Shown: positions 92 to 63,672 of the stretch, in pieces
How the letters are laid out: each line of letters opens with the position of its first letter
How positions within the stretch are numbered: position 1 is the stretch's first letter
Origin: Promethearchaeota archaeon
GTDB taxonomy: Archaea; Asgardarchaeota; Lokiarchaeia; Sigyniarchaeales; SOKP01
Assembly (NCBI GenBank): GCA_016840085.1
Contig: JAEOTA010000078.1
Span: 13,446 to 77,445, forward strand
Length of the DNA stretch: 64,000 nucleotides
Direction of reading: 5' to 3'
Translations under genes and position numbers: made by a program
Notes under the pieces: model-generated
Database searches by the model: none
What the model saw: only the letters and a program-made list of their open reading frames with translations
Told to the model about the DNA's origin: nothing

Positions 92-1249
92 TCATGATAG
101 ATGAGTCTCTTCATTATAAGTATCTTTTCGTTTGAAATATATAACAGCTATAACTACTCCACAAATAGATAATATACCTATAAGAAAAATAACTAATTCT
201 AAATTCAGGATGTTTATATTCTCATGCCAGGGGTAATTTCCTTTATATGTATTTGCAGTGTTATTCAAGTAATTATTATAGATAAATTGTTCCACAGTTT
301 TACCAGTTATTTCAAGACTGACATTCGAAATATGAGTGAGATTATCTTGGGTAGTATGATGATAAGGCCAATGTGGATTATCCCAAAAATTAATAATCAA
401 ATCTGCTGAAGGAATACCAATGTTTACAAAAGCTTGATGATCGTCCATAATCGACGCTGTTGTCGGATTGGATGGAAATTGCTCAGTATATCCTAACCGC
501 CTTCCAACCGCAAATAATTCATCTAATAGAGAAGAAGTAGAGTATTGCTCCTTGATAAAACGTAAATTTTCACCTCCAACCATATCTAATAAAATCATAC
601 AATCTAAATTTTCAGTCTCAGAATTATAAAAACTATTAATTTCATCCACAAATGCTTTCGATCCTTCACACCACCCCCAATTATCAATCCCGTAAGCATT
701 ATCTCTACCTTGATCCTCTGCGTCAAAAAATAAAAACCATACCTGGCATGACAGATTTATTCTTCTTTGATAAAACACTCTAGCAAGTTCAATCAAGACA
801 GCACATCCACTAGCACCATCGTTGGCACCAGGTACAGGATATGATCTATTTAAAGGGTTAGGATCCTTCGTCGCTTTAGCACGTGAATCATAATGAGCCC
901 CTAAAATTATTATATTGCCATAATTTTGATTTAATTTGAATAAAACGTTTTGACACTCAGTTGAGTGAGTAGTAAAATTATGGAGAATGTAAGTAAAATT
1001 ACTTTCAATTTCTTGAAATTTCGAAATGAAATAGATAGCACAATTTTTTCTCTCTTCTGTTCCTGGGATTCGATAACCGATATCTAATTGATCTCGTATA
1101 TATTCATAAGCATTATCACCATTAACATGTAATTCTACGTCAATATTTTGAATTTCTAGTTTATCTATAGTAAAAAAGGATATGTAAATAGAGAATAATC
1201 CTAACACAATGATGATTACGGGTATTATAACCTTTGTATATTTCTTAAT
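92..1249 (-). CDS. M28 family metallopeptidase (glutaminyl cyclase-like), signal peptide plus C-terminal membrane anchor
   Basis: GAHYDSR, GANDGASG, FDAED, LDMVG, DDH and HHT motifs; C-terminal hydrophobic helix plus KRK. Frame extends upstream of GTG 1207 to ATT 1249 (IKKYTKVIIPVIIIVLG, signal-peptide-like) behind GGTGA; start uncertain. Confidence 0.85.
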   Translation of the reverse strand: MKKYTKVIIPVIIIVLGLFSIYISFFTIDKLEIQNIDVELHVNGDNAYEYIRDQLDIGYRIPGTEERKNCAIYFISKFQEIESNFTYILHNFTTHSTECQNVLFKLNQNYGNIIILGAHYDSRAKATKDPNPLNRSYPVPGANDGASGCAVLIELARVFYQRRINLSCQVWFLFFDAEDQGRDNAYGIDNWGWCEGSKAFVDEINSFYNSETENLDCMILLDMVGGENLRFIKEQYSTSSLLDELFAVGRRLGYTEQFPSNPTTASIMDDHQAFVNIGIPSADLIINFWDNPHWPYHHTTQDNLTHISNVSLEITGKTVEQFIYNNYLNNTANTYKGNYPWHENINILNLELVIFLIGILSICGVVIAVIYFKRKDTYNEETHLS

Positions 1250-1356
1250 GTAAATTCACCATAATTGTAGGAGCTTCTAAATAATCCGTTTTAAATTATT
1301 TACTCTAATATCAAAATTCTTATTATTTTTATAATATTTTATTTATAAAAAAGGGG

Positions 1357-61751: not shown

Positions 61752-61938
61752 TTTTGCTATTTTTGTTTAGAATAATTAATAAATAAAAAATGAGAACAAA
61801 TAAATATATTATTTAAAATAAAAAAGCATATATATGGAATACGAGAATTAGCTTAGAAAAGCTAAAGATAAAGGCAACAAAATATTTAATTATTACACCA
61901 ATAATTTAGATTAATTACTTAACAAGAAGTGATAATTC

Positions 61939-63672
61939 ATTCTTCGAGAGTTTACGATTGAAAAACAATATCTGAATTTTCCCGTTAAACCGGAAACACC
62001 AAAGACTTTGATACACTTCAGTATTGATGGTAAGATTGTACGTGAATTCGATGTTTCACTCGCGACAGGCGAGCTAGATTTTTGGATTTTTCTTGATGTT
62101 TCTGAATTTAAAGGTAAAAAAGCAACTTTACAAATCGATGAAGAAAACGAAGCATTCGACAAAATTTATCAAGCTAATTCATATCCTGGGGAAGAGAATA
62201 TCTACAAAGAACATCTAAGACCTCAGTTCCATTTCTCATCACGCCGAGGATGGAATAATGATCCTAATGGTCTAGTCTATTATGACGGTGAATATCACCT
62301 ATTTTACCAGCATAATCCCTACGGATGGAGTGCTAGTTTTTCTGTTAATACAACTTGGGGTCATGCAATAAGCAAAGACTTGATTCACTGGAAAGAATTA
62401 CGCAGTGCCATTCATCCAGATAACTTAGGTACAATTTACTCTGGTTCAGCAGTTATTGATAAACTGAATACTACGGGCTTTCAGAGTGGTGAAGAAAAAA
62501 CACTAGTATGTATATATACTTCCGCAGGTGGTCAAAATCCCTGGTCAAAAGACAAACCTTTTACACAGTCAATCGCATATAGTAATGACAGGGGTAGAAC
62601 TTTCACTAAATATAGTGGAAATCCAGTCCAAGAAGAAGTTGAACCACTTAATCGTGATCCTAAAGTTATTTGGCACGAATCGACAAATCAATGGATAATC
62701 GTCTTATACTTAGATAAGGATGTTATGGGTTTTTTCACTTCCAAAGATCTTAAATCTTGGCAACTTCATAGTAGATATGGAAGAAAAAATCTTCATGAAT
62801 GTCCAGAACTATTCCAATTGAGTATTGATGGAAATCAACAGAACAAAAAATGGATTCTGTATGCTGGCAACGGCCGTTACGATATAGGCCAATTCGATGG
62901 GAAAAAATTTATACCCGATACTAAAGGGATTATTTTTAACTATGGGAATTGTTTCTATGCATCACAGACTTTTAACAATATCCCTGAAGAAGATGGCAGA
63001 CGTATTCAAATAGCATGGGGAGTAATTCCCATGCCAGGCATGCCTTTTAATCAACAGATGCTCTTTCCCGTTGAACTTACACTAAGAACTACAGAAGAGG
63101 GGCCGCGAATATTTGCTCAACCAATAAATGAAATTAAGAAAATTTACGGCAAGAACTGGATTTTTCAAGATAAAGTTGTTGAAGAAGGTCAACATTCAAT
63201 TTTGGAAGAAAATTACGATGAAGGCTTTTATGATATCTCAGCTGAGTTTGAAATCGGGAGTGCAAAAAGATTTGGGCTTATTATCAATAATATCCAAATT
63301 ACCTATGAAATCAAGGAGCAAAAGCTTTATTGTCAAGAGCGTTATGGGTCATTGAAACCGATGGAAGGTAATATAAAATTCAGAATACTCGTTGATCGCA
63401 CAACATTGGAACTTTTCGCCAATGATGGCCAAATCTATATGCCGATCCGTACACATATTAATATCACAGAGCTTTCTGAGCTCTATTCAAAATTCGGTAC
63501 AGATTTTAATATCACAGAGATTTCTGAGCTCTATCCATTCAAATTGAATTATGCAGTGTCATACACTAAACCTGTCATCATAGGGAAAAGTGATATTATA
63601 GTTTTTAGTGAAGGAGGAATAACTAAACTGGTTAAAATGGAAGTTCACGAGCTAACCTCAATATGGCATTAA
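61939..63672 (+). CDS. Glycoside hydrolase family 32 (levanase/fructosidase) with N-terminal accessory domain
   Basis: WNNDPNG, WGHA, SGS, RDP, ECP, YASQT; inferred ATT start 61939 (LREFTIEKQYLNFPVK). Confidence 0.92.
   Translation: MLREFTIEKQYLNFPVKPETPKTLIHFSIDGKIVREFDVSLATGELDFWIFLDVSEFKGKKATLQIDEENEAFDKIYQANSYPGEENIYKEHLRPQFHFSSRRGWNNDPNGLVYYDGEYHLFYQHNPYGWSASFSVNTTWGHAISKDLIHWKELRSAIHPDNLGTIYSGSAVIDKLNTTGFQSGEEKTLVCIYTSAGGQNPWSKDKPFTQSIAYSNDRGRTFTKYSGNPVQEEVEPLNRDPKVIWHESTNQWIIVLYLDKDVMGFFTSKDLKSWQLHSRYGRKNLHECPELFQLSIDGNQQNKKWILYAGNGRYDIGQFDGKKFIPDTKGIIFNYGNCFYASQTFNNIPEEDGRRIQIAWGVIPMPGMPFNQQMLFPVELTLRTTEEGPRIFAQPINEIKKIYGKNWIFQDKVVEEGQHSILEENYDEGFYDISAEFEIGSAKRFGLIINNIQITYEIKEQKLYCQERYGSLKPMEGNIKFRILVDRTTLELFANDGQIYMPIRTHINITELSELYSKFGTDFNITEISELYPFKLNYAVSYTKPVIIGKSDIIVFSEGGITKLVKMEVHELTSIWH
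63458..63534 (+). repeat. Intragenic 29-bp direct repeat with 48-bp period
   Basis: TTAATATCACAGAG(C/A)TTTCTGAGCTCTAT at 63458 and 63506. Confidence 0.85.

Follow-up and report, generated by a model that had tools for sequence, protein, structure and literature searches.

In a 64,000-nucleotide stretch of a Promethearchaeota archaeon genome (GenBank assembly GCA_016840085.1, contig JAEOTA010000078.1, positions 13,446 to 77,445; hereafter the window), we are highly confident that seven genes begin translation at ATT or ATA instead of ATG, GTG or TTG, and such starts, together with ATC, appear to serve a few per cent of genes throughout the genome and in its genus. The explanation we favor, and consider probable from the sequence, is that the ordinary methionyl initiator tRNA (Met-tRNAi) initiates at these near-cognate codons where a Shine–Dalgarno (SD) motif anchors them, that the codons form a class of weak starts, and that initiation factor aIF1, whose own gene starts with ATT, is possibly self-regulated in the manner of bacterial infC. 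In what follows ATH (AUH in transcripts) stands for ATT, ATA and ATC, and canonical for ATG, GTG and TTG. The source assembly (G000; the window is G000:C75:13446-77445) comprises 4.68 Mb at a GC content of 29.5% and a completeness of 98.8%, and its aIF1 has its best matches in Promethearchaeia/Promethearchaeota (Lokiarchaeia) records, at 65% and 59%.

A sequence-only reading of the window had listed seven ATT or ATA codons behind SD-like motifs. All seven were found where it had placed them, as were the motifs and in-frame stops, and the genes are intact and of the families it had named (Table 1), according to Pfam for all seven and with the neighboring MntA gene supporting the HEPN assignment. 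When aligned to GGAGGTGA, each of the seven codons lies 8 nt from the T of its SD motif (RACo was read from the sequence directly). In four genes (M28, cobO, the dehydratase and GH32) an earlier start is impossible because an in-frame stop lies within three codons upstream. The first downstream canonical codon is found 14 codons inside the gene for M28, 15 for the dehydratase, 18 for RACo, 23 for GH32, 28 for cobO, 40 for the short-chain dehydrogenase (SDR) and 61 for HEPN; in cobO and SDR it comes only after the P-loop and the Rossmann motif, respectively, and in the extended cobO and SDR proteins the Pfam models start at residues 6 and 8. The list of seven stands in full but was one short, as it had overlooked a conserved gene without a name that starts at ATT 51753 on the reverse strand (ORF, open reading frame, 51753), with the caveat that its SD motif contains an in-frame GTG. 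Three other ORFs of the window, 18599, 27693 and 41933, were rejected as candidates given that usable TTG starts are present, and ORF 3743 was rejected as the latter half of a gene with a frameshift.

Table 1. Window genes with putative ATH starts, and the antitoxin gene that overlaps one of them
Gene	Coordinates	Strand	Putative start	SD motif	Remarks
M28 peptidase	92..1249	-	ATT 1249-1247	GGTGA 1260-1256	TGA of the SD motif is an in-frame stop
Short-chain dehydrogenase (SDR)	4865..5665	+	ATA 4865-4867	AGGTG 4853-4857	
cobO/btuR adenosyltransferase	15992..16525	-	ATT 16525-16523	GAGGT 16538-16534	In-frame TAA 3 codons upstream
RACo (2Fe-2S/ASKHA)	32131..34137	+	ATA 32131-32133	GAGGTG 32118-32123	
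MntA antitoxin	37371..37808	+			NF047752 above cut-off; contains the SD motif of the HEPN gene
HepT-like HEPN RNase toxin	37804..38247	+	ATT 37804-37806	GGAGG 37790-37794	
2-hydroxyacyl-CoA dehydratase subunit	48807..50096	-	ATA 50096-50094	AAGGTGG 50109-50103	In-frame TAG 2 codons upstream
Conserved gene without a name (eighth candidate)	51277..51753	-	ATT 51753-51751	GGTGG 51763-51759	
GH32 glycosidase	61939..63672	+	ATT 61939-61941	GTGAT 61929-61933	In-frame TGA TAA immediately upstream

Orthologues show two patterns at the start column: ATH is either kept (M28, HEPN, ORF 51753) or exchanged (SDR, RACo, dehydratase, GH32). The M28 gene, which had been called the weakest case, is in fact among the best conserved, with ATA in 17 and ATT in 7 of 25 genus orthologues behind a fixed GGTGA or GGTGG, and one more shifted by a codon; an adjacent ATG is present in 2 and no ATG stands beside the ATH codon in the other 23. 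ORF 51753 carries ATH at fixed spacing in 20/20 genus copies (ATA 14, ATC 4, ATT 2), and HEPN, whose ATT is overlapped by the TAA stop of MntA, has ATT in 9/9 genus copies and ATG in 4 copies of sister genera. The exchanging columns hold ATG in 18, TTG in 4 and ATA in 2 of 24 genomes for SDR, and ATT in 2, ATA in 1 and ATG in 1 of four GH32 copies. Among dehydratase orthologues, one has TAA immediately before ATA and others have TTG or ATG at the start column. The window holds two tandem paralogous dehydratase subunit genes (47491-50099, reverse strand) that are 65% identical, one starting with ATG and the other with ATA. For RACo, 6 of 14 close orthologues have ATA without a canonical codon nearby and 5 have ATG or GTG in the same column. 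In the source genome a TTG lies in frame 26 codons upstream of this ATA, but in two orthologues in-frame stops exclude it as a start. Finally, cobO has an SD motif with ATT in 5 of 29 genomes, and in the other 24 an ATG or TTG stands 1–3 codons further upstream, mostly without an SD motif, a pattern that fits an AUG that is self-sufficient and an AUU that depends on the SD motif. Switches between ATH and canonical codons thus occur within the genus in five genes (SDR, RACo, dehydratase, cobO and GH32). Internal methionines align with Ile codons in only ~8% of columns, and hence the columns in which ATG and ATH exchange act like start columns.

Genome-wide, the excess is specific to the reading frame. 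Of 51 ORFs with GGTGA and no canonical codon, 38 have ATH in frame behind the motif, as compared with 8 and 3 in the other two frames (Fisher p=4e-13); anchoring on GAGGT or GGAGG leads to the same outcome, and the congener G006 agrees. An unconditioned genome-wide tally shows no ATH excess because internal Ile codons swamp the signal, which is confined to ORFs without an early canonical codon. Across 230 long ORFs that lack a canonical codon in the first 25, ATT, ATC and ATA have an upstream SD motif in 8–11.5%, as compared with 13% for ATG and 11% for TTG in ordinary ORFs and an overall rate of 3–4%. A stricter count over 3,659 ORFs, requiring a 5-nt SD match and an extension of at least 8 codons, gives 477 canonical and 97 ATH starts (ATT 46, ATA 33, ATC 18) against ~18 per control frame, and CTG adds 8. 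The distance between ATH and the SD motif is most often 8, and this peak is sharper than that of the canonical starts (p=0.002). The net ATH rate of 2.2% from this count is a floor because both a strong SD motif and an extension of at least 8 codons were required, and orthologue pairs with G006 picked regardless of SD motif give ~13/449 (2.9%, read from the list and also a floor). Allowing for filter losses, we estimate that ATH serves ~3–5% of genes and makes up roughly a seventh of the strong-SD starts. The sequence-only reading had taken the trait to be lineage-wide, which the orthologue columns, frame test and genome-wide tally bear out, and had put it at more than 10% of genes, which holds for the window (7 of ~54 genes; binomial p=0.018 against a genome rate of 5%) and is a property of the window, not of the genome.

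The association with SD motifs that had been proposed is also seen when starts are anchored by homology: 27 non-canonical starts have a median SD duplex energy of -5.5 kcal/mol, as compared with -3.1 kcal/mol for ATG (p=0.005). The anti-SD GAUCACCUCC is present in 5/5 relatives; no 16S rRNA gene was found in the source assembly. The initiator tRNA of the source genome has the usual features, with A1, a CAU anticodon and three G-C pairs. About 73% of confident canonical starts in the source genome lack a strong SD motif, and a published review describes SD motifs as 'not prevalent' in Lokiarchaea (PMC7531240). A TATA-box at -33/-30 precedes 14–15% of the SD-less ATG genes versus 2–7% of the ATH genes, and there is a weak hint that the former are leaderless.

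The gene for aIF1 itself (G000:C81:64201) encodes an intact SUI1 homologue and starts with ATT. Only two codons separate an in-frame stop from this ATT, and the first canonical codon comes 58 codons in, beyond the zinc knuckle. The ATT is the same in 27/27 copies from the genus, in contrast to a neighboring Ile codon, which varies. In other Lokiarchaeia the gene mostly starts with TTG, ATG or GTG, with ATA in at least five, and in non-Loki archaea the start is canonical in 76/78. Outside the class, the copy of L398 (Aenigmatarchaeota) apparently starts with ATA behind GAGGTGG and that of L388 (Thorarchaeota) apparently with CTG (both at about 360–400), so weak starts may have evolved for aIF1 on several occasions. 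In two genomes of the genus there is a further aIF1-like match, ~60% identical (G024:C58:42821 and G007:C18:24883), one of them with internal stops; it is either a paralogue or contamination.

Assembly errors, or incipient pseudogenes that have lost their ATG, would explain ATH starts trivially, and two observations lean that way: the SDR ATA occurs in only 2 of 24 genomes, and the window contains one apparent frameshift, at 3384-4696 on the forward strand, where ORFs 3384-3791 and 3743-4696 overlap in different frames while four relatives have a single frame (here the gene is broken or the assembly wrong). Error or decay is unlikely, however, because every one of the seven ATH codons is seen again in one or more genomes that were assembled separately, and the reading frames are intact. 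Furthermore, the extensions upstream of the first canonical codon are under purifying selection in the five genes computed, with synonymous to non-synonymous codon differences of 357:36 in cobO, 292:123 in SDR, 607:138 in aIF1, 128:80 in HEPN and 137:131 in RACo, and the affected genes include those of aIF1 and ribosomal proteins. The expectation of decaying genes whose relatives all retain ATG was not borne out, and we regard the chance of artefact or decay as negligible. Real but unregulated initiation is a more serious alternative, in which ATG in a slow-growing, AT-rich lineage drifts to ATA or ATT wherever a good SD motif tolerates its loss and stringency is lower. The low genome GC content and the alternation of ATH with canonical codons within the genus in five of the genes are what such drift would produce. 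Against it, M28, ORF 51753, HEPN and aIF1 (always ATT) almost never revert to ATG, although shared descent is uncorrected in these counts; the near-invariance of their non-canonical starts suggests selection for a weak start, and we consider drift alone unlikely.

Two further alternatives place the cause in decoding. If ATA stood for Met, or if editing turned the codon into AUG in the mRNA, no weak start would be needed, and it fits reassignment that TiaS was not found: neither PF22641 nor PF08489 was detected in the source genome, and PF22641 was not found in 117/120 genomes of the class, being present in 3/3 of one family. A TilS-like match fell below cut-off and fits NcsA/TtuA better, and an AUA-reading tRNA-Ile was not located in the source genome by pattern search. 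In orthologous columns, however, the counterpart of an internal ATA is ATT or ATC in 39% and ATG in 2.3%, the pattern expected of an Ile codon; internal ATA is Ile, and a mitochondrial-type code with AUA as Met is rejected. Moreover, ATT is the commonest ATH start and editing would have to be of three different kinds, making recoding or editing extremely improbable. The other alternative is an initiator tRNA with a modified wobble position, as in animal mitochondria, or an initiating Ile-tRNA, by which the whole AUN box would be read efficiently. The near confinement of the excess to the three Ile codons speaks for it, as does the lack of a detected TiaS here and in most Lokiarchaeia families, which makes AUA decoding already unusual. 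On the other side, Escherichia coli prefers the same set of codons without such a modification, tRNA-Ile(GAU) lacks initiator features, ATH remains a minority despite AT pressure, and CTG and ACG starts also occur, for example the CTG of a uL1-like ribosomal protein whose G006 orthologue starts with TTG. We therefore judge a modified or Ile-charged initiator to be very unlikely.

Several observations on these genes stand apart from this argument. The initiator tRNA gene (G000:C22:51652-51786, reverse strand) apparently has two introns, and introns at unusual positions in several further tRNA genes lead ARAGORN to misread the anticodons. The uL1-like gene (G000:C35:8753, reverse strand) was recognized by eye, with its CTG behind GGTGA. 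ORF G000_3013 (G000:C30) has a conserved N-terminus behind GGTGA or GGTGG and a start column of ACT/ACC then TTA, neither canonical nor ATH; it is possibly a further non-canonical start.

SD-anchored initiation by Met-tRNAi can be laid out in steps. The SD motif would pair with the standard 16S tail and position the codon 8 nt downstream in the P site, where Met-tRNAi (CAU) would pair at positions 1 and 2 with the position-3 mismatch tolerated, such that AUU, AUA, AUC and, rarely, CUG or ACG would begin proteins with Met. That Met-tRNAi is the decoder is very likely in our judgment, and that the ATH starts are less efficient than AUG is likely. The lineage would then keep ATH as a heritable class of weak starts on the estimated share of genes, and a weak start would suit a toxin gene downstream of its antitoxin. 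For aIF1, a feedback can be envisaged by which a drop in the factor makes selection laxer and aIF1 rises again; AUU-started aIF1 may be kept low in this way, since aIF1 rejects AUU in Sulfolobus and IF3 limits itself through AUU in bacteria, which would leave room for other AUH starts. By analogy, the odds of aIF1 autoregulation through its AUU start are roughly even. More tentatively, and with somewhat more doubt than belief on our part, tunable SD-gated AUH starts on more than 100 genes, with stringency set by a self-controlling aIF1, could be the archaeal equivalent of the autoregulation of IF3 and eIF1.

Some of the results weigh against this picture. The homology-anchored set of 27 is small and includes false or misplaced members, only 56% of it reach -5 kcal/mol, so that dependence on the SD motif may be less than strict. 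Genus copies are kin, so that their counts are not independent events and shared descent is uncorrected. The sequence-only reading had suggested altered fidelity of initiation factors, and inspection of aIF1 revealed the ATT start of its gene but nothing attributable to lower fidelity in the protein: the alignment shows no distinctive change and no nameable lineage-specific defect, and its K-W-G loop also occurs in a family in which most aIF1 genes have TTG or ATG starts. Nor is the relation between aIF1 start and ATH load significant, with an ATH to canonical ratio of 97:477 in the source genome versus 7:73 in G050, a complete sister-family genome with TTG-started aIF1 that was counted on 0.8 Mb (p=0.07; G006, 24:120).

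Given that translation very probably starts at ATT, ATA or ATC, gene finders cut off the N-termini of these proteins, as had been predicted. On a Logan contig cobO is called as 149 aa, without its P-loop, and SDR is held in a public collection as a truncated 226-aa form. None of the extended proteins was found in that collection, although the queries began with Ile, which alone could block an exact match. Asgard proteins thus enter databases without P-loops, Rossmann motifs and N-terminal membrane anchors, with consequences for annotation, for structure prediction and for cloning. A lineage in which a few per cent of genes start at AUH would show that start-codon stringency can be set far lower, and would provide a natural system for how stringency evolved toward eukaryotic AUG scanning. 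With the AUU start of aIF1, it can be tested directly whether an archaeal fidelity factor regulates itself; if it does, a single factor could tune an entire set of genes in prokaryotes closely related to eukaryotes.

According to reviews, archaeal translation starts at AUG, GUG and UUG only (PMC7531240), and non-canonical events are reported only for elongation and termination (PMC8211752); our literature search, of incomplete coverage, returned no paper that describes AUH starts for Asgard archaea. Across 36 prokaryote groups, an ancestral AUG has become AUU in 1/61,358 cases by annotated starts (PMC5622118), whereas here five of the seven genes have exchanged ATH and a canonical codon. In the same study weaker start codons tend to accompany stronger SD motifs (PMC5622118). 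E. coli reporters initiate at AUA, AUC, AUU and CUG at 1–2% of AUG (10.1101/063800), which is the same codon set, but what is leak there would be the sole usable start of conserved native genes here. The closest likeness in kind is with E. coli infC and pcnB, which have SD-led AUU starts; infC is, as here, a fidelity factor's own gene, encodes IF3 and is autoregulated through its AUU (PMC4705826; 10.1101/063800). There, however, two AUU genes are confirmed, as compared with an estimated 100–180 AUH genes here, where AUA and AUC are used too. IF3 and aIF1 are not homologous, so the arrangement in this lineage would be convergent. Animal mitochondria use ATN starts on leaderless messages, in which an internal AUA frequently means Met. 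They share ATT, ATA and ATC starts with the genes described here, which differ in being SD-led and in reading internal ATA as Ile. Within the SUI1 family, archaeal aIF1 proofreads starts in Sulfolobus and Pyrococcus (PMC4705826, PMC6237735), and that of Sulfolobus is the factor that excludes AUU (PMC4705826), a codon that probably serves as a start in the lineage studied here. The related eIF1, as cited in PMC6237735 (Ivanov 2010), is autoregulated through an AUG in poor context, so that the gene of the factor again has a weak start, though not an AUU. AUU starts and IF3 autoregulation are already known; new to the literature searched would be a lineage with AUH starts on several per cent of its genes and an AUU-started aIF1.

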